Shown here: positions 21,857-60,066 of the stretch, one piece after another
Layout of the letters: each line of letters starts with the position of its first letter
How positions within the stretch are numbered: position 1 is the stretch's first letter
Virus record (IMG/VR): IMGVR_UViG_3300017917_002593
Coordinates: 22,212 to 86,211 of that record
DNA from: a virus
Strand: one strand, 5' to 3'
DNA: 64,000 bases
The notes under the pieces: generated by a model
Databases searched by the model: none
Told to the model about the DNA's origin: nothing
What the model saw: the letters and a program-made list of their open reading frames with translations, nothing else
Program-made: the position numbers and the translations under genes

Positions 21857-21867
21857 AGGAGAAATAA

Positions 21868-22254
21868 ATGGCATTAATTCCATTAAACACGTTTAAAACA
21901 AAAACAAAAGTATTAGATACTAATTCAACATCAACAGTATACGTTGCACCAATTGGCGTAACTTCTATTGTACTAATGGCTCAAGTTGCCAATGTTGATC
22001 CGGCAGCGGCACATACTATTACCTTTAGTCATCATAGGAGATTTAGAGTGCTCCCTGATGCCCAAGGAAATAACGCTCAAGATCCAAACATTACAACTGA
22101 GTTGGTGCAAAACTTTGAAGTCCCACCTAATGATAGTGCAGCATTAATTACAGGCAAGATGATTCTCGAAAGTCAAGATAGTATTAGAGCCAGTGCTGAC
22201 GCGAACGGTGTCATGAAATTAGTTCTAAGTATTCTTGAAACAGCCAACAATTAA
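21868..22254 (+). CDS. Small virion-associated protein
   Basis: VYVAPIGVTSIVLMAQVAN...ILESQDSIRA; similar to 14100..14417. Confidence 0.65.
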   Translation: MALIPLNTFKTKTKVLDTNSTSTVYVAPIGVTSIVLMAQVANVDPAAAHTITFSHHRRFRVLPDAQGNNAQDPNITTELVQNFEVPPNDSAALITGKMILESQDSIRASADANGVMKLVLSILETANN

Positions 22255-22267
22255 TTAAGAGAAAGCA

Positions 22268-42396: not shown

Positions 42397-45300
42397 ATGG
42401 CAATTAATTTAGATACCAGTCAGCAAGGTAATATAACCTTAAAATCACCTACAACAGGAACAGTTACTCTAACCTTACCGCAGAGTGCAACAACCAGCGG
42501 TTGGTTATTAGGTTTAGCTGATACCCAAGGTAGCTTGGCATTTATTCCGCCTGGAACAGGTGCAAGCGGCGCAGCAGGAGCCACAGGTGCCACAGGCCCA
42601 ATTGGTTCAACTGGCGCAACCGGTGCTACAGGTGCTACTGGTTTACAAGGTTCGACTGGTGCTACAGGCCCTATTGGTGCAACTGGATCTACAGGTGCTA
42701 CAGGTTTAAGAGGCGGCACTGGTGCAACTGGTCCTGATGGTGCTACTGGTGCAACAGGACCTCAGGGTGCTACTGGAGCAGCAGGTGCCGGCGGTCAGGG
42801 CGGTGCTACTGGATCTACTGGTCCAATTGGATCGACAGGTGCAACTGGTGCTACTGGACAACAAGGTACTACTGGTGCTACAGGTTTAAGAGGCGCAACT
42901 GGTGCAACTGGACCTCAAGGTGCTACAGGTTTCCCTGGTGCTACAGGCGCAACTGGTCCTCAAGGTGCTACAGGTGGTGCAGGCGGTCAAGGAAATCCTG
43001 GTGCTACAGGCGCAACTGGACAACAAGGTGCTACAGGTGCAACCGGTCTTGTAGGTGCAACAGGTGGTATTGGTGCAACAGGCGCTCAAGGTTCAACTGG
43101 CGCTCAAGGCGCTACCGGTGCAACTGGCCCTGCAGGTAATGCGGGTAACGCAGGTGCTACGGGTGCTACGGGTGCAACTGGCTTACAAGGTACTACTGGT
43201 GCTACAGGACCTCAGGGATCTACTGGTGCAACAGGACCAACAGGTGCTACTGGTGCAGCCGGAGGTAACGGTGCTGTTGGTGGAACAGGTGCAACTGGTT
43301 TAGGATACGATGTAACAAGTTCAACATCAAATACAAACGGTACAGGTAGCAAAACTTGGACCGTTAATAGAACAAATGCATTCAGTGTAGGAATGCGTGT
43401 ACGAGTCATTTACCCTGCTGTTCCTACAAACTTCATGGAAGGATCAATTACTTCCATTGTTGGTTTAGCAATTACTGTAAACGTTGATTATGTAGCCGGT
43501 ACAGTAGGCGGCGGCCCATGGGCAAACTGGACAATTGACGTTGCTGGTATCCACGGAAGTACAGGTGCAACTGGCCCTGTTGGTGCAACAGGTCCTATAG
43601 GAGCAACTGGATTACCTGGATCAGGTGGTGGCACAGGTGCTACAGGTGCTACAGGACAAACAGGTGCTCAAGGTAACCAGGGCTCAACAGGTGCAACTGG
43701 CCCTGCAGGTGCCAACGGAGGCACAGGTGCAATAGGTGCCACAGGTGCCACTGGTAACATAGGTTCCACTGGCGCAACAGGCGCTACTGGTTTCCAAGGT
43801 GCTACTGGTGCTACTGGACCAACAGGAACTGGAGGTAGTACAGGTGCTACTGGTGCTACTGGTGCTACTGGTGCTACAGGTATTAGAGGCACAGGTGCTT
43901 GGACCGCAGTTTATACTTCTGGAATTTCGACAACAAATCTTACAATCTTTACAAAGACTGGAGGAACTAACGGCGTTTGGGATCAACAGGTTTACTCAGC
44001 TGAAGGCTTTATAAGAGGTGCAATGGCCAGCGCCAGTGTTAATGACACTACTGGCCGCGCAATGTTCGGTTTAAACTCCGATCCAACAGGCAGCGCAAGT
44101 TTTGATACTCTTGATTATGCAATTTATTTTAATGCAGGTACGGTTGTAATCTACGAAAGTGGTTCTTCTGTACAAACAGCAGGCGCATATACTACCGCAG
44201 ACAAGTTTGTTATCACTTATGACGGCGGTAATGTTAGATATTGGCAAAACAATACATTATTAAGAACAACTGCAAGAGCAATTAGCAGTTCTGCACTGTA
44301 TTTTGATTCTTCTATTCAAACTACAAACACCGCTCTAACTAATGTTGCGTTCTCTGCTATGGGCGAGATTGGTGCAACAGGTCAAGCCGGTGCTGGTATT
44401 GGCGCAGGATCTGCTAACCAAGTTATCTTTAAAGACAGTAGTAACGTCTTTGCAGGTTCTGCAAACTTAACATTTGACGGAACAAATTTAAATATTGGTG
44501 GTGCTTTAAGATTTGATGGCAAAACAAATTGGGAACATAATGATAGTGCAACCGGTACAGGTGCACCTACAATGTCTTTCCATGCGTTGGGCGCTCCTGG
44601 TAAGAAACATCCAAACTATCTTGATGAAAACTTCTTTGCAGGAACCAATAACATAAACGTTTACGATAATAACGGATCCGGACAGACCGTTATTACAAGA
44701 ATAACAGCACCGAGCGATACTCCAACAACCAGCGGATTTGTTTTACAAATTCAACATACAGGCTCTGGCCAAACTCCGGGATTTGGCGGATTTTACTTTG
44801 CCGTTCCGTCAAGAGCTAATGCAATTTTAGTTGCCAGATTTAAGGCTAAACTTCCTGTAGGGTATACACTCAACTGGGCAAGTAACGCAATCGGAACTGG
44901 CAGCGTAACCTACTGGGCAACAAATAATGTCGGAACAGGCAAATGGGAAGACTATGCTTATGTAGTAGTTTGTGGTGGATCTGGAACATTCAGCTCTACA
45001 CACTTCTTCTTTGTAACAGGCAGTCCTGCCCCTACAAGTGGTACTCCGTTAACATGGTTTGTTGCGTCTGCTGCGGTATATGATGCAACAGATCATAGAA
45101 CAGATATATTATATTTGGATAGAGCAGGCGGAGTTGCTAACATCAAAGGCTACGGAGAAGGACAGATCATCATTGACGGTTCTACTACCGGCAAAGCTGT
45201 TTATCTAAATCATTATATAAATGCCGATGTATATGCAGCCAGTGGCGGCGGCAAACTGAGAGTAGGTAGCACTGCTGTTCCAACATACGAATTAGATGTT

Positions 45301-48300
45301 GCAGGCGAAGGTGCTTTCCAAGGCTATTTAAGAATTACCAATACTGCTGGCGAACAACGTCTATTAATGGGTAACCAGGATAGCGGTGGAACGAACAATC
45401 CAAGTATAATTCGTGCAGCCAACGGAACACTGTATTTTGGCAATGGTAACTCTTGGACAACTAACGGTGGTACTGTAACTGACTTTGCAACATGGGCAAC
45501 TGGCGGAAGTTCTTTAATATCTGGTACAGGCTCTAACCCTGCTTTAACAATTACTCCTGGCGGAAACAACTGGAGTGAGGGTATTAGAATTAACCCGTCA
45601 ACTACAGGCGGCTGGGCTGCGGTATTGTATCCTATTACAGCCAACACTGGCGGTGATTCTTGGTTGCTCGGTAAGGCAGGAAGCACAAATCAGTTTACTT
45701 TATTAAAGAACGGATTTACTGGCTCTGCTGCTTTTAGATCAGATGCAGCCTTTGATGTTAGTGCAACTACAGGTAGATTTACCTTTGGTTATAATCCATA
45801 TGTAGGTCCAAACCAAGTTTGGCACGCAGGTAACCTCACAAACGTTAACCAACTAAGTAACGGTCCTGGATTTGTCAGTTCAGGTAGCACACCTACATTC
45901 CAGTATGTATTAACAACTAACGGTGGTCTAACTGATAACAACGGCGGCCTAAAAGTATATGCTCCAGGAGGTGGTGCATATACTACTGGTGCAAGCAGTG
46001 TAGCTGGCGCAATTAAGATTAGATTGCCACAATTCCGTACAAGTACAATGATGCGTATGACCGTAAAAATTTACGAATACGCAGGTGGTAGTGCAGGCAC
46101 AAGTAGGACTATCGAATTAGGTGGTTATAACTACGGACCGGGTGGCTGGTATAACATTTTTGCATATCAGCAGACTCATGGTGGCGGCGATTTAAATGTC
46201 CGATTTGGTCACGACGGTACAAGAAACTGTATCTGGATCGGTGAAACAGGCGGAAGTTGGTCATACCCTCAAGTCTTTATCACAGAATTCCAAGCTGGTT
46301 ATAACGCATTTGCTAACACAGATTGGAACGACGATTGGTCAGTTACATTTGCCACAGCATTTGATACTGTTGAAAACGGTCCTATTACTGCTGCAAGAGC
46401 ACATACAACCTACAGTTTAACTAACCTAAGTCAGTTGACTAACGGTCCTGGATATCTTACACCGTATTATACAAGTCCACTCGACTTCCGAGGCGGAAAG
46501 CATATGTTCCACTCAAGTGGAACTGGCTCATCTTCTATTAATGCCGACACTTATGCAATGCAAGTTGGACCTGCTACAACCAGAGTAACTACAGCAAATA
46601 GCTACTATGGCGGTATTGCATTTAACCACTTGCTGAACTACAGTGGCGGCACATTAAACGCAGACAATACCGGTTATAACGTTAGCCCACATGCATGGAT
46701 TGGTTTAAGACTACACGATACTCCGGGAAGCGAGCGCAGTTTCTTAGCACTGGCTGTTAAACCAGGAACAGGTACAACTGGAGCCGGAACTGATGTTCCA
46801 GTTGAGCGTGTAACTATTGATCCAGTAGACGGATTTGTTGGTATTAACGTTCTTGACCCATTAGCAAGATTGCACGTTAGTGGTGATAGTAGATTCCAAG
46901 GCGATAGTAGAATATACTTAGGACCAAACAGTACATGGAGTGCTGATCTTATCCTTGGTGGTAACGGCAGAACAGATTCGAGTCGTGCAACAGTTGCCGC
47001 AACTAACGGCAATTTACATATTGATGCGGCTAACGGTTACGATCTATATCTAAACTATTACAGTGGTCGTCCTATCTACACAAGAGGCAGTGCGTTCACT
47101 AACTGGGATAGCGGTAATTTGACTAACCTAAGTCAGTTGACCAACGGTCCAGGTTTTATTACCAGCTCCGGCAGTATTGATAACTTAGGTGGAATTAACT
47201 ACTTGAGATTTGTCTACGGTGATAACACTACCAAGACTACATATACTGGCTTTACACAACAGCTAAATTCCGGATTCTATAATCATGATAGCAGCGGTGG
47301 ACCAACTGCTGCTTGGTATCACATGATTGCAAACCGCCACACAAATACTGGTAACAACTACCAAATGCAGATTGCACATCAGTTCTTTAATGATGCTGAC
47401 TTCTGGGGTAGAACTGTCGACAACGGAACTTATAAAACATGGCGCCGTTTCTGGATGGACGGTGGTACTAACGGATTAACCAACCTAAGCCAATTGACTA
47501 ACGGTCCGGGATTCTTAGGTAAATTCGGTAACAGCTATTATCAATTAGATACATGGTTGCAAATTACTGGATATCATGGTCTTTACAGCCCATTAAACGG
47601 TGCTCACTTCTATCCAAACGATGCGTCATACGGTTCCTGGAGAATGTTAGGCACACGTAACGGTTGGGCAGGTATTGAAGGCCCGGGTAACGGCGCCGGA
47701 AACGTTGTTGTTATGATGAACAGCGATACCAGCGGTTTCCATAACAACAGCTATGGTTGGCATTGGAGATGGTCAAGCGGTACTGCCTACATTAACCGTA
47801 GCACTTACGGTGGCGGTACACAGTATACTATGTGGGACAGCGGTAACCTGACCAACCTAAGTCAGTTGACCAACGGTCCGGGATTCATTACAGCTTCCAG
47901 CGGTGCTCTGTATATTGTCAGCCAGGATACACGTAACAGCAACTTTAACCCTCAAGATAGAGTCGCTGGTCTATGGGCTGACTTTAAAACCAACAGTGTT
48001 ATTGGCTTATCCGACGGTGGCAGCTATAACGGATTATTAACTTTCCGTAGTTATGGTAGCGGTGGAGATTTAAGTGGCGGACAACCAAGTCAGTTATCTT
48101 ATACTCCTAACGGAAACTGGTGGCATAGATTAGGCACTGGTACAACTTCTTGGGGCGGATGGAAGCGTTTCTGGGATAACAGTAACCTAACTAACCTAAG
48201 TCAATTGACCAACGGACCTGGTTTTGTTGTTAACGGACAAGGTAGCGTAACATTTAGTGATATCTATAACAACGGCTGGTTTAGAAATAACAACAGCGGT

Positions 48301-49500
48301 CAAGGTCTATACAACCAAGCAACTGCTAACCACTGGTATAGCCCTGCAGGCAACTATTGGGATGCAGGCCAGCAAGGGTCCGGCGGTATTAGATTAAGAA
48401 ACGGCTATGCAGGTACTATTTTAGGATATTACTATGCTGATACTTCTCTAAACAGCGGATTGTTAAACCAAAACGGTAGTTGGAAAGTTCGTGTAGTCAG
48501 CGGCGAAACTGAAATTTACGATATATTATACTGGAACGACGCCAGAGGATATATTTTCTATGATCGTAACGATACTGCCTACTATGCAGACCCTGCAAGT
48601 ACCAGCAGGTTTAACGTTCTTGGAGTAGGTCTTCAGGCTAACAACGGCGGTAAATTAAGTGTTACCGGCGGACACGGCGATTCTACAATTAGATTAACTG
48701 CACAAGGTAACCAGTTAGGTTCTGGTGTTACATCCTCAATGCACTGGTGGGTAAGTGAACCAGGTATTACATGGAACGAAGGCGGCTTCGGTTACAACGT
48801 AACTAACGACGGTGGTGCACCAGGCGGCTTTAGTAGACCAAACACCAGTTATGGTCAGGCCTACATGCGTTTCAGTACTGCGGGACATTTGTATTTCTAT
48901 AATACAAACACCAGCGGAACTCGATTTAATGCTATGGACATGTATTCCAGCAATTACATATATGTCTATAACTATCTCGAAGCTGGCGGATCTCTAAGAG
49001 CACCGATCTTCTACGATAGTAACAACACCGGTTACTACATGGATGCGGCGGGCACTACAAACTTAAACGTTCTGCAAGCAGTATCTGCAAACATTACTGC
49101 CCAGTTTGCTCGTTGGGCGGACGTGGCAGAAAAGTACGAAGCCGATGCCGATTACGAACCCGGTACTGTATTAGTATTTGGAGGTGACAAGGAAGTTACT
49201 ATTTCAACAGAAACTCATTGCCCAGAAGTTGCAGGTGTTGTATCAACCAAACCAGCATTACTAATGAATAATGATTTGAAATCTACTTTTGTTGCCAATC
49301 TTGCGCTAACAGGTAGGGTTCCTTGTAAAGTATTAGGACCGGTAAAGAAGGGACAAATGATTGTTTCTTCTCATATACCTGGTGTAGGCAGAGCAATGGA
49401 TAAAACATTGTACGAACCTGGTTGCATTATTGGTAAATCTGTAGAAGCAATTGAGTCTGCCGAAATCAAAGTCATTGAAGTTGTTGTAGGAAGACTGTAA
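42397..49500 (+). CDS. Collagen-like long tail fibre with modular C-terminal part and putative intramolecular chaperone domain
   Basis: Gly-X-Y (mostly GAT) runs; six [12 protein letters not shown]-type linkers; C-terminal ADVAEKY...GTVLVFGG...VAGVVST...GRVPCKV domain. Confidence 0.8.
42553..43885 (+). repeat. Collagen-like Gly-X-Thr coding repeats (two blocks)
   Basis: 9-nt periodic ggtgcNacN repeats, interrupted by a globular insert at ~43305-43550. Confidence 0.9.
45838..48221 (+). repeat. Six dispersed ~30-nt direct repeats encoding [11 protein letters not shown]
   Basis: Copies start at ~45838 (degenerate), 46420, 47122, 47479, 47851, 48190. Confidence 0.85.
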
Positions 49501-49509
49501 AATAGTTGC

Positions 49510-49992
49510 ATGACTATTTTTAGTACACAAGATTTGGATGAAATAATCTTTCATCCAATCTCCTACGAACAACGCATGGTGTCTATAATCGACAACATTG
49601 GCCGACAAATATTCTTACATTCAGTTGGTGAATTATTTCAGTACCCCAGTCATACCATAAAAGTAGAAGGTCTGGAAAAATACAGTAAAGAAATTGAAAA
49701 GTTTATCTGTTTGTTGAAAGAAGACTATCAGCATAATGGACCAGTAACGTGTCACGCCTTTAAGTCTTTTAAAAATTCTGGAAGTTTCGGAGTTCATACT
49801 GACCCGGACAATGTATTTTTATTAGTAGTCGATGGAACAAAGCATATGACATACAATAATGTTACCTACGAACTAACGAAAGATCAAAGTCTGTTTATTC
49901 CTGCAAACAGTCCTCATTGTGCAATTAATAATGAAGATTCTCTTATGTTAAGTTTTGGGTTAGAATCGTATTTTTGTGAAAAATTAAAATGA
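49510..49992 (+). CDS. JmjC/cupin Fe(II)/2OG oxygenase (ROXA/YcfD-like)
   Basis: FGVHTD...GTK...LFIPANSPH: HxD...H triad with 2OG-binding Lys. Confidence 0.75.
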   Translation: MTIFSTQDLDEIIFHPISYEQRMVSIIDNIGRQIFLHSVGELFQYPSHTIKVEGLEKYSKEIEKFICLLKEDYQHNGPVTCHAFKSFKNSGSFGVHTDPDNVFLLVVDGTKHMTYNNVTYELTKDQSLFIPANSPHCAINNEDSLMLSFGLESYFCEKLK

Positions 49993-51062
49993 CTGCTAAC
50001 CTTATCTATCTTAAAACTACAGAGACCTGCAACTTAAACTGTCTACACTGTTTTACCAGCGGCAGTAAAGGTGCTAAAATCTATTGGGATCATCTAAAGG
50101 TCGTGAACTGGTTAGAAAGATTAAGCAAACATCTGCCTAAAGAAAATCATGTACACTTAGAATTTCATGGAGGAGAACCCTTCTTAGCTGAATTAGATTC
50201 TTTACAATATGTCTATGATAATTGCAAAGATCTCTGGGATAATCAAAGCTGGGGAGTTACTACAAATTTAACGTTTAAGCTCACCCAAGATATTATAGAT
50301 TTTATCATGGGGCCATTAAATGGTCGCGTTGGGACCAGTTGGGATCCAGATATTAGATTTTCAAGTCCTAAGCAATACGACCTATGGCGTAAAAATGTAG
50401 AAACCTTAACTAAGTTAGGTGTTGAAATTAAACTTTTTGTATCAGTTACTAAAGGTACTGTTGCAATGGAACCTATTGATCTATTAGAGTGGGTACGAGA
50501 TTTGGGTGTAAAAGAGTTAGCATTAGAACGATTAACTGTTAACGGCAGCGCCAGACAAAATTTACATATATTCCCATCAAACTTAGAACAAGACGCTTGG
50601 TTCTTAAAAATGCATCAACAGAGTAATGCTGCTGGTGCAAGAAATTGGTTCGAAAACGAATTTTTAGAAACAGTATATGCCAAGTTTGAGATGGGTATAA
50701 GTTCACAAGGAACATTTTGCAGAGATTGCGAAGAAAAATTATTCACGGTTAACGCCGATGGTTCAATTTCTGGATGTCCTAATAGTGCGCCAGAACAGGC
50801 TTTTGGGCATATCAACGACGATATAGAACAGTTACTTTACAGTCCAAAACGTATTGAAAATATTGTCTGTGAACGTAGTAGAGATCCCAGATGTTATCAA
50901 TGCCCGGTTTTTCAATATTGCGGCGGAGACTGTCATCAACTCGAGTGGCAAGACGATAAATGTGGAGCTCCAAAGAGTTTGATGCTTAATTTGGCAGGAA
51001 TAAATACCGATAGGACTAATAAGATTATTTTAATAAAGGAGTTAAAATGCCAAGTGGATTAA
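49989..51062 (+). CDS. Radical SAM/SPASM enzyme
   Basis: CNLNCLHC, FHGGEP, SPASM cysteines CRDC...GCPN...CYQCPVFQYCGGDC...C. Confidence 0.92.
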   Translation: MTANLIYLKTTETCNLNCLHCFTSGSKGAKIYWDHLKVVNWLERLSKHLPKENHVHLEFHGGEPFLAELDSLQYVYDNCKDLWDNQSWGVTTNLTFKLTQDIIDFIMGPLNGRVGTSWDPDIRFSSPKQYDLWRKNVETLTKLGVEIKLFVSVTKGTVAMEPIDLLEWVRDLGVKELALERLTVNGSARQNLHIFPSNLEQDAWFLKMHQQSNAAGARNWFENEFLETVYAKFEMGISSQGTFCRDCEEKLFTVNADGSISGCPNSAPEQAFGHINDDIEQLLYSPKRIENIVCERSRDPRCYQCPVFQYCGGDCHQLEWQDDKCGAPKSLMLNLAGINTDRTNKIILIKELKCQVD

Positions 51063-51625
51063 CGGACCCGATAGCCCGACAGAACATTGTAAATAGATTC
51101 GCAGACTATGTTAGAGGCGCGGCAAATTCTGGCATTTCTTGGGGAACTAACGCCTATCCATTTGGAGAATTTAGTGTACTTGCCTATGTATTCGGCGGAA
51201 CTACAGCTGGTAAAGCTATTGAAATTGACGGCAACAGTTTAGGTGCTGCCGGAACAGTTGCCAACGCTAACACAGTCTATAACGTTTTAATTGCCGAAAC
51301 TACCAGGTATACACGAATTAGACTAATGAGGGCTTTATTGTTTGTTGATGGCGGCGGCGGAAACACTGGCTCTCGTCCAACTCCGGGATATGTATATGAC
51401 GGAACCGCTGTTGCACATCTTAACAGCGGATATCAAGTAAACGTAAGTGCAGGAAGAGATAACGTTTTTTCCGGAAACACTATGACTCGAGTGGGTACAG
51501 CCAATATGTTTAACAACATGAGAGCTGCTTATAACAGTATAAGAGGCTCTGCCGTTACGTTCCAAGTAAACGTATGCCACGCATCTTGCCACAGTAGCTG
51601 TCATAGCTCTCGAGGCAGGAGATAA
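51047..51625 (+). CDS. Candidate substrate protein with C-terminal (CHxS)3-RGRR motif
   Basis: Ends VCHASCHSSCHSSRGRR; Gly/Asn/Ala-rich body like the virion proteins; embedded among maturase genes. Confidence 0.7.
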   Translation: MPSGLTDPIARQNIVNRFADYVRGAANSGISWGTNAYPFGEFSVLAYVFGGTTAGKAIEIDGNSLGAAGTVANANTVYNVLIAETTRYTRIRLMRALLFVDGGGGNTGSRPTPGYVYDGTAVAHLNSGYQVNVSAGRDNVFSGNTMTRVGTANMFNNMRAAYNSIRGSAVTFQVNVCHASCHSSCHSSRGRR

Positions 51626-51634
51626 GGATTTAAG

Positions 51635-52366
51635 ATGAGTACTATCATTGACACAGTTGCTCCTATTGCATTAGAAGATTTGAAAAAATACTTTATTAAC
51701 AAAGATATTGTATTTGTAATCGACTATGAAAAGAGTAGCCTAACTGGCGCCAAATTGTTGACCTATTTAGGAAATTTAGATATCCCTTGCGATATAAAAT
51801 TAAGTTTTACAGAACCTTCACATTTTGACTTACTTAAAGAATATTTTGAAACTGGCAACCTATTAAAAATACCCAGTTTAGAACAGGCAGCAATTCTTTG
51901 TCTGTTAGAAAAAAAAGAATTAGTTATCAATACCCCTTTTGAAAATTTTATTAAAGAGAATGAGACAACATTAAACGAATGGGAATCGAGATTAGACAGT
52001 TTAACGCTGTTCAATATGCAAACTGTAGATGTTGACGAGTTTAAAAACTTTGTAGATCAGTTCCCGGAAGATTTATCAGACTCGTCGAAGTATGTAAATT
52101 TTGTTAACTTAGCACGCCATGAAGATTTTTTCTTATATTATTCAAAGATCGATAATGCTAAATTAAAAAATTATAAAACCCTGTTTAACGATTACTGCTA
52201 TCGGGGAAAAAACTTATACAGTTTCTGGGCAGTTGACACCAACCCATTATTCTTATTAACATGGTCGATCGCTTCTGGAAATTTAGATACTGAAGAGTAC
52301 GTAAATTCAGTTAAAGAAGACTACAATGTAGTAACTAAGGACTCAGCAAATGTTTCACCTGTTTAA
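51635..52366 (+). CDS. Hypothetical protein in the radical SAM operon
   Basis: 243 aa ORF, SD AAGGA, overlaps the next gene. Confidence 0.7.
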   Translation: MSTIIDTVAPIALEDLKKYFINKDIVFVIDYEKSSLTGAKLLTYLGNLDIPCDIKLSFTEPSHFDLLKEYFETGNLLKIPSLEQAAILCLLEKKELVINTPFENFIKENETTLNEWESRLDSLTLFNMQTVDVDEFKNFVDQFPEDLSDSSKYVNFVNLARHEDFFLYYSKIDNAKLKNYKTLFNDYCYRGKNLYSFWAVDTNPLFLLTWSIASGNLDTEEYVNSVKEDYNVVTKDSANVSPV

Positions 52367-53567
52367 AAAAGTATATTTAGATTTTGACGATAAAATTAAT
52401 ATGAGCTATGACAGGATAGTTTGTTCAAATGCCTATGGCGGAATTATAGATTCTATCGACTTATCTAAAGTATTTTATGGGGAACTAATTGCATCAAGTA
52501 AGAACATTGGTGACTTAATCGGCCCCGAAAAGAAATTTAATACCTTCTTAGAAATGTTGGAGCTATTAAACAGCAGAGTTGATCAATATAACAGCCCTGT
52601 TTACGTCTACTGTGATAAAGAATCGTATTATAAATTTGCAGTCAAGTGGATGAAAATTATTCTTCCAAGATGTACAGCACCCGCAGCTTGGAAATTTTTC
52701 AAGTCTCATATTTTTAAAGAAAAGAATTTTGTTAATTCCAGAATGTCGGCCTCTGAAAGATTTATCAATGATGTAGACTCGTGGTATTTGCTCGAAGAAC
52801 AATTTAACACATACTGGACAAATGAAGTTGTTACTCAAGCTGATAGAAACACATATTCTCAATTTATAAACACAGTAAAGAATAATCTCAAAGTTGAATT
52901 TTTGCTTGCATCTTACCTTTACAATAAAAGTCTCGGTGATGTTTTAGCTAAGGCAATTACTCCGTTAGTTAAAAAAGATTTAGAAAAATTTATATACGAG
53001 CATAAAGAAGTTATCCTTGTACATTTTCAACGTCCGTTTTTTCAAACCCTATTAGGAGTTCAAAACGGCCCATACACCTTTGACAATTTTTATTCAATGG
53101 TAGATGATCCTGCTCCATTAGTACAGTTGATGTTTAAGCCAGAAATATGGGGTGAAACTCGAAGCTCTATGTTTGCTCCGACTTCCTCTGGCTCAATTAA
53201 TTTGTCAGCATTTACTGATGAAGATATTACTAACCTAAAAAGTTATAGCGCAATTACAGGGCAAATTTGGAAAGACGAAGTTTGGTATACCAGTTTAAGA
53301 ACAACTCCGTCGGCGCAATCATACTTAGGATCTGAAGTTGATAAATTTGATTTTATTAAATTTTTTAGAAACAAAGATTACCTAACAGTTGAAGAATTAG
53401 ATTCTATTTTAGACTATGAGATCTACCATCAGTATCATTCTGCAGGATCGTTTTATGCGTTTGACTTAAGATCAGTTAACACATATTTTGTAGACTTCTT
53501 ATTAATGAACTACAATAATGCAGAACTACTTGAACCTTTTATTATTGAAATCAACGAAAGCCAATAA
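52350..53567 (+). CDS. Hypothetical protein in the radical SAM operon
   Basis: 405 aa ORF coupled to its neighbours; PVYVYCD weakly recalls a phosphatase-type strand-Cys loop. Confidence 0.7.
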   Translation: MFHLFKKVYLDFDDKINMSYDRIVCSNAYGGIIDSIDLSKVFYGELIASSKNIGDLIGPEKKFNTFLEMLELLNSRVDQYNSPVYVYCDKESYYKFAVKWMKIILPRCTAPAAWKFFKSHIFKEKNFVNSRMSASERFINDVDSWYLLEEQFNTYWTNEVVTQADRNTYSQFINTVKNNLKVEFLLASYLYNKSLGDVLAKAITPLVKKDLEKFIYEHKEVILVHFQRPFFQTLLGVQNGPYTFDNFYSMVDDPAPLVQLMFKPEIWGETRSSMFAPTSSGSINLSAFTDEDITNLKSYSAITGQIWKDEVWYTSLRTTPSAQSYLGSEVDKFDFIKFFRNKDYLTVEELDSILDYEIYHQYHSAGSFYAFDLRSVNTYFVDFLLMNYNNAELLEPFIIEINESQ

Positions 53568-53569
53568 CA

Positions 53570-54595
53570 ATGTCAATATACGAAGTCATTGATTCTAAAG
53601 TTGTTGATCATGGAGAAGTTATTGTTTGCTTATTTGAACACTGTAATTTACAATGTTCATTTTGTCCACAAGATCATAATTCTTTAATCGGTGTCTCTCG
53701 AGAAAAGATTTTAGGAAAGATTCCCTCAATAGTTAAATGGATCAACGAAAACACCAGATCAAAGTGTTTCAAGATTCATATAATGGGAGGCGAGCTGTTT
53801 CAAGATTGTTGGATAAATGATGGCTTCATTGAAATTTATCAAGAGCTATTGTATTCTATTCGTGCTCAAGTATCAGAAGATAAAGATTTAATTTTCAACT
53901 TTGTCACAAATTTAGTGTTTGAAAACACAGATAAAGTATTAGATTTTCTAAAAAAGAATAATCTAAAAATCTCAGTGTCTTATGATTCCAAAGGACGTTT
54001 TAATAAAAGTCAACTTGAAACATTTAAACGCAATATAGAAATATTTAGAGACAACATTGAAATGATCTCTCTTGTAATGACTCTTCAAAATATGGAAGCA
54101 GTTATAGCAGGCGACAAGTACTTTGATTATTTGTATAATAATTTTCCATGTGATTGGGATTCTTTTCTTCCCGCAGTACAGGCATCTGAGATCATGATGC
54201 CTAAAGAATCAGATCTACTTAAATTTTATAAGCATTTAGTTGATCGATATCCCGACTGTACAAATATTTCATATTTTACAACAACTGAACATTCTAAAAA
54301 AATGACATGCACTCGCGGTAGTAATTTTACAATAATGCATGATGACACAATTCCTCAAGGCTGTTCGGGCAGTATTCTTATGAAAGGGAATACTACAAAA
54401 AATACAGCGTCGGATCAAATTGTGATAAATTTTTTTAAAACATACAATTGCTTTGAATGTGAGTATTTTAAAAAATGCCCATTCACATGTTTCATAAAAA
54501 ACGACTATAATAAACTCAAAAAAGATGTTGGTGAGTGTGTTTTTAAATTAACTTTTGATCATGTAAATGCAAGAAAACAAGATACACTTTTATAA
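53570..54595 (+). CDS. Radical SAM enzyme with SPASM/Twitch-like C-terminus
   Basis: CNLQCSFC, IMGGELF, CTRG...GCSG, CFECEYFKKCPFTC. Confidence 0.88.
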   Translation: MSIYEVIDSKVVDHGEVIVCLFEHCNLQCSFCPQDHNSLIGVSREKILGKIPSIVKWINENTRSKCFKIHIMGGELFQDCWINDGFIEIYQELLYSIRAQVSEDKDLIFNFVTNLVFENTDKVLDFLKKNNLKISVSYDSKGRFNKSQLETFKRNIEIFRDNIEMISLVMTLQNMEAVIAGDKYFDYLYNNFPCDWDSFLPAVQASEIMMPKESDLLKFYKHLVDRYPDCTNISYFTTTEHSKKMTCTRGSNFTIMHDDTIPQGCSGSILMKGNTTKNTASDQIVINFFKTYNCFECEYFKKCPFTCFIKNDYNKLKKDVGECVFKLTFDHVNARKQDTLL

Positions 54596-56297
54596 ACCAG
54601 TAAGAGTCGTAAAAGAACCCTTAACAATTGCATTTGTAAATCCTCCACATGCAGATTGGTCTCTTATAAACACGCTGACTTACCATTTATGCCATAGTCA
54701 TTATAGTCGATATGGCAAGTATAAAGACATGGTTAAATGGCTACCATCTCCTTACAGATGGAATAAGTATTCTTCTTGTCAAGAAGTCTATGAAGAAATC
54801 AAAGAAGCAGACATAATCATGTTTAGTTCATATGTCTGGAATTATCCTATATGCGATGAAATTGCTAAGATAGCCAAAGCAAATAATAAGATAACACTAT
54901 TAGGCGGCCCGCATATTGGAACTAACGACAACGACTTTTTAAAATCAAGAAATTTTTACGACTTTATTTGTAAGCCTACTAAACCGGGAGAAGTATTTCT
55001 TGAAGACTGCATTGATTCTTGGTTTGAAAATGACAAACATATACAAGCTGAAAACATAAGCTGGGAATTAAATTCATCAAAGACTCGAGATTATTCTATA
55101 TCAGATTTAACGTATTCTGTATACGAAGATCATGCTGAGTATTTGAAAGAAATAGTTACCTATGCAAAAATTAATAAAATGGAGCCTTTTGTTGTTCTTG
55201 AAACTACAAGAGGATGTCCTTATAGTTGTGTATTCTGCGAATGGGGCGGCGGCATTGGCACCAAAATACAAAAGAAACCTTTAGACATAGTAAAACGAGA
55301 TATCCTTGCACTTTTAAATATAGGATATCGAGATGCAATGTCTGCAGATGCAAATTTTGGTATTTTTTTAGAGAGAGATTTAGAGATTTTAAGATTTGCA
55401 TGGGAAAATGGATTTAGCATAAGTGACATGTCGTCAATGAAATCGAAAGATCTAACTAAAAGGAAAAAATTAGTCGACGAATGGTTTAATATTGTAAGTA
55501 GGCCTGTTACTAAAACTAATAGTAGCGCAGACAACATGTGGGAAAATACCAAATATATTTCCATCCTACCAACTGTCTCGATACAAAGTATTTCGAACGA
55601 AGCAATGAAGATTGCAAAAAGAGTTGACTTGTCGTATGAGGACAAGTTAGAGTTAAGTAGATATATAGGAGAAAAAATTCGAAGCGCAGGCTATCCTGTT
55701 CCTGCACTTGAATTAATATTAGCAATGCCCGGCTCGACTTTAGATGATTTTTATAAAGAAATGGAAATTATTTGGAACTTTAGGATATGGGGATTGCGTC
55801 GACACGATTATATGTTCTTGCCCGACTCCGAACTAAATTCAGAAGAATATAAAAATCAATACAAGATAGAAACAGTAGAAGTTTATTCAGATTCTGCTGA
55901 TGAAGATGGGTCTGACAATTTTTATAGTTTGTATAAAAACAAAAAATCTTATTTTAAGACTATAAGGTCTTGTTATTCTTTTACCAAAGAAGAGATGCTT
56001 GAAATGTTTTTTATGAACTGTGCCGCAACATATCTGCTTAGGAATGTTTATCAGGAATACGAACCTTATCTACTACCTGGAGATTTTTGTAAACTGTGTT
56101 ACAAAATTATAAAAACATTTGACTCCTACAAAAAAATTTATGATGCAATTGAAGATATATTCGATCCAACAACTGCTCCTAAATCAATAAAGAAGATAGA
56201 AAACAGGGATAGGGTTGAAGTAGTTGAGGAACTTATCAACAATAATATTTTGTTACTTAAAAATGGGATAGCTAATCATGTACTCGTCGATCAATAA
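54567..56297 (+). CDS. Cobalamin-binding (class B type) radical SAM enzyme
   Basis: B12-binding-like DIIMFSSYVWN...LLGGPH; ETTRGCPYSCVFCEWG; DANFG. Confidence 0.85.
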   Translation: MQENKIHFYKPVRVVKEPLTIAFVNPPHADWSLINTLTYHLCHSHYSRYGKYKDMVKWLPSPYRWNKYSSCQEVYEEIKEADIIMFSSYVWNYPICDEIAKIAKANNKITLLGGPHIGTNDNDFLKSRNFYDFICKPTKPGEVFLEDCIDSWFENDKHIQAENISWELNSSKTRDYSISDLTYSVYEDHAEYLKEIVTYAKINKMEPFVVLETTRGCPYSCVFCEWGGGIGTKIQKKPLDIVKRDILALLNIGYRDAMSADANFGIFLERDLEILRFAWENGFSISDMSSMKSKDLTKRKKLVDEWFNIVSRPVTKTNSSADNMWENTKYISILPTVSIQSISNEAMKIAKRVDLSYEDKLELSRYIGEKIRSAGYPVPALELILAMPGSTLDDFYKEMEIIWNFRIWGLRRHDYMFLPDSELNSEEYKNQYKIETVEVYSDSADEDGSDNFYSLYKNKKSYFKTIRSCYSFTKEEMLEMFFMNCAATYLLRNVYQEYEPYLLPGDFCKLCYKIIKTFDSYKKIYDAIEDIFDPTTAPKSIKKIENRDRVEVVEELINNNILLLKNGIANHVLVDQ

Positions 56298-56805
56298 TAT
56301 ATATGAAAAAGGATTTGTAAAACTTTATGAACCTGAAGGCGTAGGTATGATACAAATCGATAACTTTGTTTTATTAAACACCGAAGAGCGCCTGCGTGAT
56401 AACATTAAGCATGATGTATCAAAAGATCTCTCTGAACGATTATCTTTATTTGGCCAGTATTTAAAAACTAAGTATATTGACCCAGAATGGCCGGACGCAG
56501 TATATAATAAATTTGTTGTTTGGGAAGGTGTTGACAAAGACAATCAGGGATGGCATACTGATATGTTTGAAGGCTACGACATTTTCTTTTTATATTATCT
56601 GGATACAATGTCTCCAGAAACAGGCGGCTCAATAAGTTTTAAATGGCAAGGCGATGGAGATAATTCAGTTGAATTTTACCCTAAAGCTGGAGATCTGTTT
56701 ATGGTTAATAATATGCGAGGTTTTTGGCACAAGGCACAAAGCTGTAGTATTAAGAGACGAGTTGTAAGTTTTGATTTTAATGTAGGATTAACAGATCATG
56801 AATGA
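56278..56805 (+). CDS. Fe(II)/2OG oxygenase
   Basis: WHTD...FLYYL...GG.I...P.AGDL...WHKA...RRV. Confidence 0.8.
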   Translation: MYSSINNIYEKGFVKLYEPEGVGMIQIDNFVLLNTEERLRDNIKHDVSKDLSERLSLFGQYLKTKYIDPEWPDAVYNKFVVWEGVDKDNQGWHTDMFEGYDIFFLYYLDTMSPETGGSISFKWQGDGDNSVEFYPKAGDLFMVNNMRGFWHKAQSCSIKRRVVSFDFNVGLTDHE

Positions 56806-57103
56806 TGTTAAAAAAATGTTTGAATTAAAAAACGAATTGTGCAAAGAAAGAGACTTATGTGCAGAATTGTGCAATATATGGCTTACACGTATGTATCAGA
56901 ATCAAGGTAACAAAGAAGAATACAACAAATACTTAAAGTTGATACAAGATACAGAACCCTATACTCGTCAACTAAAAGCTAAAATATCTGAATTGAACAA
57001 AAAAATCTGTGAAGTAGAAGGGGTCGACAGTATCACTGATACAGAGTACACACATGAATGCGTGAGCAAATACGGTTTTGATTTTCCTAATACTGACAAA
57101 TAA
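56798..57103 (+). CDS. Small helical Cys-containing hypothetical protein
   Basis: 101 aa, coupled at both ends; CKERDLCAELC. Confidence 0.65.
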   Translation: MNDVKKMFELKNELCKERDLCAELCNIWLTRMYQNQGNKEEYNKYLKLIQDTEPYTRQLKAKISELNKKICEVEGVDSITDTEYTHECVSKYGFDFPNTDK

Positions 57104-58170
57104 TGGACTTAATTATTAAACCTACAGAAAGGTGCAATTTTAAATGTACTTTCTGTTCAAGTACACATATTACAGAGGACAAGTCTGCTGAGCTCGATCA
57201 CCAATACATTTTCGATTTCTTAAAAAGGTTTCCCGAGACCAATACAATAATTGTTAACGGTGGTGATCCTTTAATGATGACTCCCGAATACTATTGGAAG
57301 ATAATAGATTACTTAGATAAAATAGGATCTTCTGCTTCAATATCTTTTACAACTAACCTATGGCCGTTTTATAAAAATCCAGAAAAATGGAAAGATTTGT
57401 TTAACCATCCAAGGATGGGAATTACAACAAGTTTTCAATATGGCGGTGGCAGACTAAAGGGAGACTTATCTGAATTTAGTGAAGAAGATTTTTGGAAAAC
57501 ATCTGATGCAATGTTAGAACATTGTGGATATCGACCTGATTTTATTTCTGTAATTACAGAAGAGAATGCTCACTTGGCAATTAAGAATGTTGAGCTCGCT
57601 AAACAGATGAATGTTGAATGTAAATTAAACTATGCGTTCTCGAGCGGACCCCCGATAAAGTTTAAAAATATTGTAATGGGGCAACAAGGAAAGCCGTACA
57701 TGCTTGCCGATATCTACGAAATTTATGTAGAAATATGGAAAAGAGGATTAACTCCTTGGGAATATAATACCAAGCAAATGGTCAAAAGACTAAAAGGCTC
57801 GGGCACAACTTGCCCTCAAAATAGAGATTGCGATTCGGGAATTAGAAATTTACAGCCGTCAGGGGATTATTATTCTTGCGGAGCTTTTGGAGATGATAGA
57901 GAATATGCAATAGACTTTAAAAAAGAAATGGAAGGGGAGAAGATATACCCACTAAAATTTCAACCAGAATTGCAGAGTTTGAAACAGAGTTGTTATACAT
58001 GTCCAATGTTTCAGATTTGCAATGGCTGTAAAAAGACTATTAAAGATTTAAAAAGCTACGGATTAGTTGAATCACATTGTATGAAAATGAAGAAGCTGGC
58101 ACCTGATATTATTGCGGCAAATGGTATGACTTTGGAAGTAACAGAGTACGTATCAGAGGTTCAAGATTGA
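57103..58170 (+). CDS. Radical SAM/SPASM enzyme
   Basis: IIKPTERCNFKCTFC, NGGDP, CPQNRDC...YSCG...CYTCPMFQICNGC...C. Confidence 0.92.
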   Translation: MDLIIKPTERCNFKCTFCSSTHITEDKSAELDHQYIFDFLKRFPETNTIIVNGGDPLMMTPEYYWKIIDYLDKIGSSASISFTTNLWPFYKNPEKWKDLFNHPRMGITTSFQYGGGRLKGDLSEFSEEDFWKTSDAMLEHCGYRPDFISVITEENAHLAIKNVELAKQMNVECKLNYAFSSGPPIKFKNIVMGQQGKPYMLADIYEIYVEIWKRGLTPWEYNTKQMVKRLKGSGTTCPQNRDCDSGIRNLQPSGDYYSCGAFGDDREYAIDFKKEMEGEKIYPLKFQPELQSLKQSCYTCPMFQICNGCKKTIKDLKSYGLVESHCMKMKKLAPDIIAANGMTLEVTEYVSEVQD

Positions 58171-58204
58171 CCAGCCAATCTAAATATTGTATAGTTAAGT
58201 AATA

Positions 58205-59119
58205 ATGGTACTGTCGATTAATCCCTGGTATTACTGTAATTTTAGATGCAGTTTTTGTTATCTAACCGAAGAACAGTTGTCTGATAAAAAATTATTGCCC
58301 CTTGATAAGTTGGAGCAACGATTAATCGAAATTACTGCTGTTTCAAAAATAGATATGGTAGATCTTTACGGAGGAGAGGTAGGGTTACTTCCAGTATCTT
58401 ATGTAAAGTCTCTAAAAGAATTACTTCACGCATACGGGATTTACGATATTAATGTGATCACTAATTTGTCCATGATAAATGAGATTACTACTGACCCAGA
58501 TTTCTTTATTTCTGTAAGTTATGATTTTAGTGCAAGAGAAAAGCATGAGTTGGTCTTTAGGAATATGGCGCAACTAACTACTCCGTTTTCAGTGTTAATG
58601 TTAGCTTCTCCTAAACTGTTAGAATATGATGTTAACGAAATAGTAGAAACTTTAAATCTATTACCTAATCTACAATCAGTTGAGATAAAACCCTATAGTC
58701 AAAATCAAGCTAATCAACATAATTTGCAGTACACTCAGTTTGAAGAGTTTGTAAAATCTTTTTTAGAGAATAAAAATAAAAACTTTACTTTTGTAAACGA
58801 AAAATTAATACAGCGTGTATTAGACAAGACGAGAAATAGTTTCAGCGATGATCATGTTTACATCACACCGTCTGGAAATTATGGCGTTTTAGAATTTGAT
58901 TTAAACGATCGAGAATATTTTCAAGAGTATGAAACTTTAGACGAATATTTTGAATGGTGTGAACTTGAAAAAGTAAGAGTACAAAAAAATAAATTTTGTT
59001 CAAGCTGTGAATATTTTGGAAATTGTCTATCGGAACATTTACGAGAAGTTAAATCTTTAGATAATAGTTGTAACGGATTTAAAAAGTTAATCAATTGGTA
59101 TGCAAGACTGGAAAATTAG
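58205..59119 (+). CDS. Radical SAM enzyme with reduced C-terminal Cys cluster
   Basis: CNFRCSFC, LYGGE, CSSCEYFGNC...CNG. Confidence 0.88.
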   Translation: MVLSINPWYYCNFRCSFCYLTEEQLSDKKLLPLDKLEQRLIEITAVSKIDMVDLYGGEVGLLPVSYVKSLKELLHAYGIYDINVITNLSMINEITTDPDFFISVSYDFSAREKHELVFRNMAQLTTPFSVLMLASPKLLEYDVNEIVETLNLLPNLQSVEIKPYSQNQANQHNLQYTQFEEFVKSFLENKNKNFTFVNEKLIQRVLDKTRNSFSDDHVYITPSGNYGVLEFDLNDREYFQEYETLDEYFEWCELEKVRVQKNKFCSSCEYFGNCLSEHLREVKSLDNSCNGFKKLINWYARLEN

Positions 59120-59504
59120 ACAAGAAATATATCATCGAATGACAAGGGCTCACGAAGATGACCTCAGTCAGTTTGATATTGAGCTAACAGATAATGTTGT
59201 AGATGATGCTGTTCGATATTTTAAAGATCGAAATATAGGTTGGGTGTATCCTTCTAAATCGTACATGGTAGGTATTTGTTATTCAAAGTGGTTATCTAAA
59301 GAATTTGGTGAATTACCTGAATACTATCTTGACGATGCCGATTTACTCTACGGCAATGATCCCTATTTTGTAGAATATAGTAAAGACCCAGAAACATATC
59401 ATAAGATTCTTAATCAAATTGGCGGTTGGGACTTTGATCAAACAGCTGGAATGGTACCGGATGTCTATGAATATTTTAAAAAAGAGTTTTTATTAAATGA
59501 ATAA
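59100..59504 (+). CDS. Hypothetical protein in the radical SAM operon
   Basis: 134 aa aromatic/acidic ORF overlapping both neighbours. Confidence 0.7.
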   Translation: MQDWKIRQEIYHRMTRAHEDDLSQFDIELTDNVVDDAVRYFKDRNIGWVYPSKSYMVGICYSKWLSKEFGELPEYYLDDADLLYGNDPYFVEYSKDPETYHKILNQIGGWDFDQTAGMVPDVYEYFKKEFLLNE

Positions 59505-60066
59505 AGGTTTTAATAATTTATGGCCCACACCTGTCTACATAGACAAGATATCTAACGAAGAATTAGTGAATCAAGTATGCGAAGAAATATTGATGAACGT
59601 TGATTTGTCAAAGCCTTTTACTGAATTCCAGGCATATGATATTTTAAGAGACGGTGCAGAAGTGTTTCAAACATTTAGAGATCAGGTAGTGATGCCCTCA
59701 TTTGAAACGTATTTAAAAAACTGGAATTTAAGTTTTAAAGATTTTACAAATTATCGTATTCGGTCTTGGTTAACTGGCGCACATGCAGGGTATAATATTC
59801 CTGTTCATAATCATAGCGGTGCAACTCTAAGTGCAATTTTTTATCTGTTGATAGATGATAATTTACAAGGAGGCGATTTAATATTCCTTGACCCGCGGTC
59901 AAATGCTAATCGAGGATACGAGGATCAATTTAAACCGCTTTTTGAAAACAAGCAGTATTCTCCTAAGTCAGGAGAAGTTGTAGTGTTTCCGGGATTTTTG
60001 TACCATCAAACAATTCCATTTTCTGGATCAATTCGATTAGCTATGCCAGTTGATCTTTTTTTCTAA
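59497..60066 (+). CDS. Putative Fe(II)/2OG oxygenase (phage HxH-type)
   Basis: LWPTP, SW...HNHSG..LSAIFY, GDLIFLDPR, VVFPGFLYH..R. Confidence 0.8.
   Translation: MNKGFNNLWPTPVYIDKISNEELVNQVCEEILMNVDLSKPFTEFQAYDILRDGAEVFQTFRDQVVMPSFETYLKNWNLSFKDFTNYRIRSWLTGAHAGYNIPVHNHSGATLSAIFYLLIDDNLQGGDLIFLDPRSNANRGYEDQFKPLFENKQYSPKSGEVVVFPGFLYHQTIPFSGSIRLAMPVDLFF

Follow-up and report, generated by a model that had tools for sequence, protein, structure and literature searches.

A Cys-His-x-Ser C-terminal motif within a radical SAM gene cassette points to an undescribed finishing step of phage virion or cell-surface appendage proteins

The SPASM domain is typical of peptide and protein maturases and, to our knowledge, radical S-adenosylmethionine (SAM) chemistry of the type seen in RiPPs (peptides made on the ribosome and modified after translation) is known almost entirely from short secreted peptides. 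In this study, we report a 192-aa protein, here named the CHS-tail protein (51047..51625, + strand), which ends in three Cys-His-x-Ser units followed by Arg-Gly-Arg-Arg and is encoded in a cassette with four radical SAM genes, designated rSAM_A to rSAM_D. The cassette lies in IMG/VR record IMGVR_UViG_3300017917_002593, an 86-kb virus record; the window referred to below is the 64,000-nt stretch at positions 22,212-86,211 of that record, and all positions are those of the window.

HXS is an antiphage system in which a 214-aa protein, HxsA, is matured by two radical SAM enzymes, HxsB and HxsC, with HxsD, and it shows that radical SAM enzymes can act on folded proteins carrying repeats of this kind (PMC13128918). 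It resembles the present locus in having a folded protein of about 200 aa with tandem His-x-Ser-type repeats and more than one radical SAM enzyme, and in acting outside the cytoplasm (PMC13128918). However, the HxS repeats of HXS have a period of three residues, contain no Cys and do not lie at the extreme C-terminus, whereas the repeat described here has a period of four, an invariant Cys and a terminal position; moreover, HXS uses two enzymes with HxsD for bacterial defence, whereas the CHS-tail protein is phage-made and has a homologue in virions. The original prediction, made from the sequence of the window alone, had filed the tail with HXS, and this assignment did not survive. The CHS-tail protein gave no match to the HxsA model TIGR03979 (NCBIfam, E<=0.01), rSAM_A scored 33.7 bits against the HxsB model TIGR03978 (cut-off 370), rSAM_C scored 30.2 bits against the HxsC model TIGR03977 (cut-off 267.9), and no HxsD was found among the NCBIfam matches of ten cassette proteins (the best 25 families for the two SPASM enzymes). 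The period of four, the invariant Cys and a Ser that is replaceable (Asn in 20% of second units, Ala on a megaplasmid) also speak against it.

Triceptides are similar in another way. HaaB, YhhB and HtkB form crosslinks from His-C2 to X3-C-beta on HAA, HNR and HTK motifs, and the His-x-(Ser/Asn/Ala) of the tail fits their aromatic-X2-X3 motif, which is present in the CHS-tail protein as H-A-S, H-S-S and H-S-S; SPASM-type enzymes and repeated motifs are further shared features (PMC11499958). Unlike triceptides, the locus has an invariant Cys before each His, a folded 175-aa 'leader', and four distinct radical SAM enzymes together with oxygenases. Against the cyclophane synthase models, rSAM_A scored 28.7 bits for YhhB NF041707 (cut-off 445), 25.4 for FxsB TIGR04269 (cut-off 370) and 26.7 for AmcB NF041718 (cut-off 425), all of them missed.

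The Cys-thioether maturases (PapB of the ranthipeptides, the sactipeptide enzymes and QhpD) likewise act beside regularly spaced Cys encoded next to a SPASM radical SAM gene, and QhpC is a protein subunit that is cross-linked by its radical SAM enzyme. PapB (NF047865) was the best named family for rSAM_A, at 59.5 bits against a cut-off of 340, with CefB at 22.4 against 600; the other best NCBIfam matches of this enzyme were DynA, a methanogen peptide maturase and anSME, all far below their cut-offs. Unlike the thioether systems, the tail offers no conserved Asp or Glu acceptor of the C-x3-D type across the 333 tails compared (see below), position i+4 of the three Cys is occupied by Cys, Cys and Arg in turn, and the invariant His would have no role there. 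Protein thioether crosslinks made by a SPASM enzyme have been reported (PMC13692751). Formylglycine formation was also considered and rejected: the third unit has the Cys and the Arg at i+4 of the motif (C/S)-x-(P/A)-x-R, but its i+2 position is Ser, Gly or Asn, and the anSME model TIGR03942 was missed at 43.5 and 40.4 bits (cut-off 349). Because all curated cut-offs were missed, the cassette belongs to none of HXS, the triceptide synthases and the PapB family.

The gene of the CHS-tail protein starts 16 nt inside the preceding rSAM_A open reading frame (ORF; 49989..51062, +), which encodes a radical SAM enzyme with a full SPASM domain (TIGR04085, 36.7 bits, cut-off 27). The translated ORF consists of an alpha/beta N-domain of about 175 aa and a 16-aa C-terminal tail, and ends in ...VNVCHASCHSSCHSSRGRR followed by the stop codon; the short form of the C-terminus is VCHASCHSSCHSSRGRR, and the C-terminal tryptic peptide is ...CHASCHSSCHSSR. 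The three units, CHAS, CHSS and CHSS, span 51575..51610 (+) and hold the only cysteines of the protein (C177, C181 and C185), and the R-G-R-R end (51611..51622, +) directly precedes the stop codon. Both the composition of this tail and its overlap with a SPASM gene had been noted in the original prediction and were borne out. The pattern CHxxCH occurs once across all six frames of the window. An AlphaFold2 model of the protein had a mean predicted local distance difference test score (pLDDT) of 82.7, falling below 50 in the tail, which was rendered as a low-confidence helix in which the Cys and the His, three of each, are spaced i, i+4; the terminal tail is thus predicted to be unstructured.

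The N-domain matched no named family or solved fold. The protein had no match in Pfam or, at E<=0.01, in NCBIfam, and its sole PHROG match was a weak one to phrog_35144, a family of unknown function (E 2.7e-5). Foldseek against the PDB found no solved fold (best E 1.2), and VIA-align against 48,161 chains found no known fold (best Z 4.0, with 130 residues aligned at a root-mean-square deviation of 5.6). Matches in BFVD were to uncharacterised phage models only, including one of a protein of phage Atu_ph07.

The tail, in contrast to the N-domain, is conserved to an extent far beyond chance. A word-indexed search returned 646 homologues at E<=1e-3, of which 120 were retrieved, and all 120 end in V-C-H-A-S-C-H-x-x-C-H-x-[SA]-R-x-R-R. 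A profile search over 1.84 billion representatives matched 478 proteins; among the best 150 of these, 142 contain CHxxCHxxCH and 137 have the repeat exactly six residues before the end. Pooling all sources gave 333 distinct proteins, 67-541 aa in length, that end in xCHxxCHxxCHxxRxRR. Position 4 of the unit is Ser in 95%, 77% and 92% of these tails for units 1, 2 and 3, respectively, and Asn takes this place in 20% of second units; across all tails X3 is one of Ser, Asn, Ala and Asp, the variable position of RxRR is Gly in 254 of the 333, and 78% of the proteins have no other Cys. In 70 distinct tail DNA sequences, TGT and TGC were about equally frequent, as were CAT and CAC, and both Ser codon families were present. 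As synonymous codons vary freely, selection acts on the peptide and not on the DNA. By these alignments, the tail is the most conserved part of a large family, with invariant Cys and His and a replaceable Ser.

Family-profile alignments of cultured-phage homologues were limited to the last 72 residues of gp170 of Atu_ph07 (296 aa) and to the last 29 residues of ORF071 of Ralstonia phage RSF1; the N-domains have diverged beyond recognition while the tail stayed invariant. The N-domain contains no invariant His or Cys. In longer natural forms, the same tail follows a Gly_rich_2 domain or inserts some 350 aa long; short ones, of 134-140 aa, are encoded in pairs immediately downstream of a fibre gene. 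In two loci (L058:9836-10665 and L162:6062-6879), such tandem proteins are translationally coupled to the end of a 6-8.5-kb fibre gene, and the radical SAM genes lie elsewhere on the contig.

Linkage of the tail to radical SAM and SPASM genes is near-absolute. A radical SAM homologue is present in all 58 IMG/VR loci analysed, and the gene order is nearly fixed: cupin, rSAM_A, tail gene, unk243, unk405, rSAM_B, optionally a cobalamin-dependent (B12) radical SAM gene and a 2-oxoglutarate (2OG) oxygenase gene, rSAM_C, rSAM_D, o134 and a further 2OG oxygenase gene. In 51 of the 55 loci whose upstream DNA is long enough, the tail gene is immediately preceded by rSAM_A; in 55 of 58 it is immediately followed by unk243, and all four enzymes are encoded in 41 of 58, contig ends interrupting most of the others. 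Searches of cultured phages with the protein and the cassette by tblastn and megablast found nothing, and cultured-phage homologues were reached solely via rSAM_A. Among 50,697 phage records, rSAM_A and rSAM_C occur in the same 15, which represent eleven phages. The gene after rSAM_A ends in the tail in the four lineages that were read: RSF1, which is phiKZ-related (PMC5468394), Atu_ph07, Pseudomonas phage pPa_SNUABM_DT01 and Sinorhizobium phage Phosso. The two features proposed for checking in the original prediction, a motif conserved among homologues and radical SAM genes as their usual neighbours, were thus both found. In RSF1/RSL2-type phages, the cassette is interrupted by genes for an HNH endonuclease and two dihydrofolate reductases (L059:15488-16777 in RSF1).

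Each of the four enzymes has its own set of conserved cysteines. The radical SAM CxxxCxxC with 7-8 C-terminal Cys is complete in rSAM_A (C14/C18/C21 and nine C-terminal Cys) and rSAM_C (57103..58170, +; C11/C15/C18 and eight C-terminal Cys), and partial in rSAM_B and rSAM_D. rSAM_C has a full SPASM-like Cys set and matched Radical_SAM above the cut-off (38.6 bits), with 23.3 bits against TIGR04085, below the cut-off of 27. rSAM_B (53570..54595, +) matched Pfam Radical_SAM and phrog_1802 and has a partial SPASM/Twitch-like set (C25/C29/C32 and six C-terminal Cys), and rSAM_D (58205..59119, +) matched phrog_1802 (E 7.1e-46) and has one auxiliary-cluster-like set (C11/C15/C18 and C265/C268/C274/C289). 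Mutual identity is 21-25%, with hhalign probabilities of 94-98% for most pairs, and none of the four has a close solved relative by sequence. The enzymes are distant paralogues with separate auxiliary Cys sets, which implies four non-redundant steps. rSAM_C is the best conserved of the cassette enzymes: its identity among this phage, the phiKZ-like Ralstonia and Burkholderia phages, and the T4-like Atu_ph07 and Phosso, otherwise unrelated, is 58-63%, and it seems to be the step under the tightest constraint. The identity of rSAM_A, at 42-50%, is well below this, and the N-domain of the presumed substrate is no longer alignable.

The cassette is not confined to phages. A degenerate tail DNA pattern was searched in one genome per prokaryotic species; among the 123 matches listed, at least 21 were real tails, in at least 17 loci, and the rest were mostly low-complexity CH/CR repeats of GC-rich genomes. 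At least 12 of the tail loci listed came from metagenome-assembled genomes (MAGs) of Bdellovibrionota, and at least 9 of 301 sampled Bdellovibrionota genomes had a tail-pattern match. All Bdellovibrionota loci with enough flanking sequence encode radical SAM or unk243 homologues, and several also o134 or the cupin. These cassettes are chromosomal loci among housekeeping genes, not prophages. In a Halobacteriovoraceae MAG (G001), the whole cassette is chromosomal (L181/L182, G001:C1 ~302.9-313.8 kb) and lies on a 1.29-Mb contig, flanked by serine dehydratase, Mrp/NUBPL ATPase, lytic transglycosylase and YchF genes; in a second genome (G002) it lies between nusB, glyA and fabF-type genes. In a Bacteriovorax MAG (G004; L185:6392-9782) it adjoins two ATP-binding cassette (ABC) exporter genes and a gene for a DsbA-like thioredoxin, a hint at export of the bacterial product. 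Beside the G001 cassette (L181:11764-13005, - strand) lies the gene of a 412-aa protein that has a fibre-chaperone domain, Peptidase_S74, and recalls the phage-like fibre proteins employed by Bdellovibrio on its prey (PMC10769870). The cassette travels as one block among T4-like phages, phiKZ-like phages and the chromosomes of Bdellovibrionota.

A related locus was found on Pseudomonas aeruginosa plasmid CP018048.1 (L187:11289-11663, + strand). Its 124-aa protein has a signal-peptide-like N-terminus and four CH-x-A/S units, ends in YCHTACHGACHGACHGSRGWR with RGWR at the terminus, and is encoded among five radical SAM genes beside type IV pilus/type II secretion system-like genes. As this megaplasmid variant has four units and Ala at position 4, the invariant element is Cys-His and not His-x-Ser.

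Evidence that a protein of this family enters the phage particle comes from the published virion proteome of Atu_ph07, in which gp170 (31.89 kDa) was identified by 8 unique peptides with 35% coverage, and from whose list the neighbouring radical SAM proteins gp171, gp168 and gp165 are absent (PMC6102473, Table S5). The original prediction had called the CHS-tail protein virion-like; Pfam, PHROGs and fold searches gave this no support, and gp170 supports it indirectly. On the gel, gp170 was spread over slices 1-9 with its maximum in slice 1, the top one (PMC6102473), whereas ordinary proteins of about 30 kDa in that proteome peak in slice 8 and the other multi-peptide proteins that peak in slice 1 are of 76-139 kDa. 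The paper on S13 contains no proteomics.

Taken with the linkage and the conservation, we consider it reasonably probable that the tail is a protein-borne core motif that is rebuilt by the four paralogous radical SAM enzymes. The description of the tail as core-peptide-like in the original prediction fits in so far as it behaves as a conserved core motif linked almost without exception to radical SAM/SPASM genes, and fails in its filing with HXS. The CHS-tail protein would be a structural, probably fibre-associated phage protein with a flexible 16-residue C-terminus, (Cys-His-x-Ser)x3-Arg-x-Arg-Arg. rSAM_A would be translationally coupled to its substrate gene, and the co-transcribed enzymes A-D, presumably old and non-redundant and furnished with auxiliary Fe-S clusters, would rebuild the tail after translation in the reducing cytoplasm, assisted by the cupin, the 2OG oxygenases and, in some phages, the B12-dependent radical SAM enzyme. 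Recognition may rely on the folded N-domain and the RxRR end as a handle. Crosslinks within the tail would be the most likely outcome, either a three-residue cyclophane from His-C2 to the C-beta of residue +2 or a Cys thioether; since neither Cys nor His varies, the two residues of a unit might also both take part in a link. The resulting tip would be rigid, protease-resistant and possibly metal-binding or covalently anchoring, and would enter the virion. Conservation of the motif, linkage of the genes, the cofactor motifs of the enzymes and a homologue in virions are observed; the tail as the substrate, the enzyme that acts first and the chemistry are inferred from them.

Several points weigh against this interpretation. 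No enzyme reaches the cut-off of any characterised maturase family and none has a solved relative by sequence. The substrate would be a folded 175-aa protein and not a leader peptide, and no element resembling a RiPP recognition element was found. Three Cys and three His within ten residues also resemble a metal site. Finally, the Atu_ph07 phage was purified by polyethylene glycol only, its virion list includes evident non-structural proteins, and the loading buffer as described contained no reducing agent (PMC6102473), so the high-mass migration of gp170 could be due to plain disulfides.

That resemblance to a metal site is the basis of the first alternative, that the tail is an unmodified Cys/His site for Zn, Fe, Cu or an Fe-S cluster, perhaps between chains, and that the radical SAM enzymes act elsewhere (for instance on fibres or on a small molecule) or have in common with it only a requirement for Fe-S supply. 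The i, i+4 spacing of the three Cys and three His and the lack of any other Cys in 78% of the family would suit such a site. Phage fibres and spikes bind Fe or Zn through His-rich repeats of the T4 gp37 and P2 gpV type, and those of the T4 gp37 tip and the P2/phi92 apex are, like the present tail, short repeated metal-ligand motifs near the end of a structural protein. Unlike those HxH motifs, which sit in trimeric beta-structures that have no dedicated enzymes, the tail has Cys-His pairs at the chain terminus and comes with radical SAM genes. Phages rich in radical SAM genes also carry Fe-S assembly genes (PMC5332604). Nevertheless, an unmodified site leaves unexplained the linkage and translational coupling to four specific enzymes across unrelated phages and bacteria, as well as the conserved small polar position 4 and the invariant RxRR end, and the N-domain has no invariant His or Cys that could complete it. 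We therefore regard this explanation as rather unlikely.

Still less probable, in our view, is that the tail is a covalent docking peptide, in which the Cys, either free or made reactive through oxidation by a radical SAM enzyme, would attach the protein to a fibre or another virion protein, giving intermolecular anchoring and not rings. The position of the 32-kDa gp170 in the top gel slice, among proteins of 76-139 kDa, would fit such anchoring; so would the gene's place after giant fibre genes here and in many loci, the paired short copies of L058 and L162, the natural fusions to a Gly_rich_2 domain and the Peptidase_S74 fibre-type protein beside the cassette in one Bdellovibrionota genome. 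However, the gel evidence comes from one sample in a buffer with no listed reductant, no conserved partner motif was identified in the fibres, and no fibre gene adjoins the cassette in the bacterial loci G002 and G004.

It is very improbable that the protein serves as the scaffold on which a small cofactor or metallophore is made from Cys and His, the tail being modified and then excised in the manner of pyrroloquinoline quinone or mycofactocin: the C-terminal position of the residues, the several co-encoded redox enzymes, the general pattern of PqqA/PqqE and MftA/MftC and the ABC exporter genes flanking the cassette in one Bacteriovorax genome would agree with it, but no peptidase was identified in the conserved core (Pfam, NCBIfam, PHROGs), the carrying domain, a conserved fold of 175 aa, is present in virions, and a protein as end-product agrees better with the invariant basic RxRR terminus and with the fusions to structural domains.

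Rebuilding of the tail by the radical SAM enzymes thus remains the explanation that we favour. A literature search (phage radical SAM, RiPP and tail fibre; Bdellovibrio radical SAM) found no description of the motif or of a function for the cassette, and papers on RSL2/RSF1-like, FLC and S13 phages give the cupin, radical SAM and 2OG genes as accessory only. The motif and its cassette therefore point to an undescribed chemical finishing step of virion or cell-surface appendage proteins. We propose, more tentatively, a new class of radical SAM maturation at the protein level, in which four paralogues would crosslink a (Cys-His-x-Ser)n-RxRR terminus, possibly through a Cys-His link new to radical SAM chemistry, and so help to build or arm extracellular appendages; it would be shared by the virions of jumbo phages, predatory Bdellovibrionota and a related megaplasmid pilus locus. 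Radical SAM chemistry would then be applied to a folded structural protein of the phage particle in hundreds of uncultured phages and eleven cultured jumbo phages. The hosts of the latter are plant-associated and clinical bacteria, and Atu_ph07, RSL2/RSF1 and Burkholderia S13 are genetically tractable. The module in predatory bacteria and the related one by plasmid pilus genes suggest a general, unstudied finishing of surface appendages, and the invariant Cys-His pair hints at chemistry beyond the current rules for triceptides, sactipeptides and ranthipeptides.

The cassette (49510-60066) comprises thirteen tightly packed + strand genes and follows a gene for a 2367-aa collagen-like fibre (42397..49500, +), which ends 9 nt ahead of it and whose product is a possible partner; fibre homologues precede the cassette in many loci. 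The first gene encodes a cupin/JmjC-like protein (49510..49992, +; Pfam Cupin_2, E 4.3e-10) that is kept at the same place in IMG/VR loci, RSF1, Atu_ph07 and one Bdellovibrionota genome (G001). Downstream of the tail gene lies its most constant neighbour, unk243 (51635..52366, +; phrog_20767, E 4.6e-55), whose AlphaFold2 model (pLDDT 85.5) had no informative match by Foldseek, PDB profile search, VIA-align (best Z 4.3, 52 residues) or the ESM Atlas (scores <=0.85). unk405 (52350..53567, +), present in most loci, matched no family in Pfam, NCBIfam or PHROGs. Between rSAM_B and rSAM_C lie the optional cobalamin-binding radical SAM enzyme (54567..56297, +), which has B12-binding and Radical_SAM matches, resembles KedN5 at 72.6 bits against a cut-off of 700 and is found in only some loci; the 2OG-Fe(II) oxygenase 2OG_a (56278..56805, +; PF13640, E 5.2e-5, below the cut-off), whose presence varies among loci; and a 101-aa protein (56798..57103, +) seen only in loci with both of these. 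rSAM_D is followed, in phage and Bdellovibrionota loci, by o134 (59100..59504, +; 134 aa), which has no PDB sequence relative, and the last gene encodes the 2OG-Fe(II) oxygenase 2OG_b (59497..60066, +; phrog_81, E 1.6e-22). The T4 late-promoter motif TATAAATA was not enriched, and no copy was found near the cassette.

The 2367-aa fibre has long Gly-X-Y collagen-like runs and dissimilar modules separated by repeated 11-residue linkers, and the three 2OG oxygenases encoded just downstream of its gene could equally serve the fibre. The window also encodes a portal, a tail sheath, several giant fibre-like ORFs and a major head protein; the major capsid protein shares 68-70% identity with its counterparts in jumbo phages of the T4 superfamily (for example Sinorhizobium phage Phosso and the GAP32 group). 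Two giant ORFs, of 2189 and 2766 aa, lie upstream at 15287-30568.

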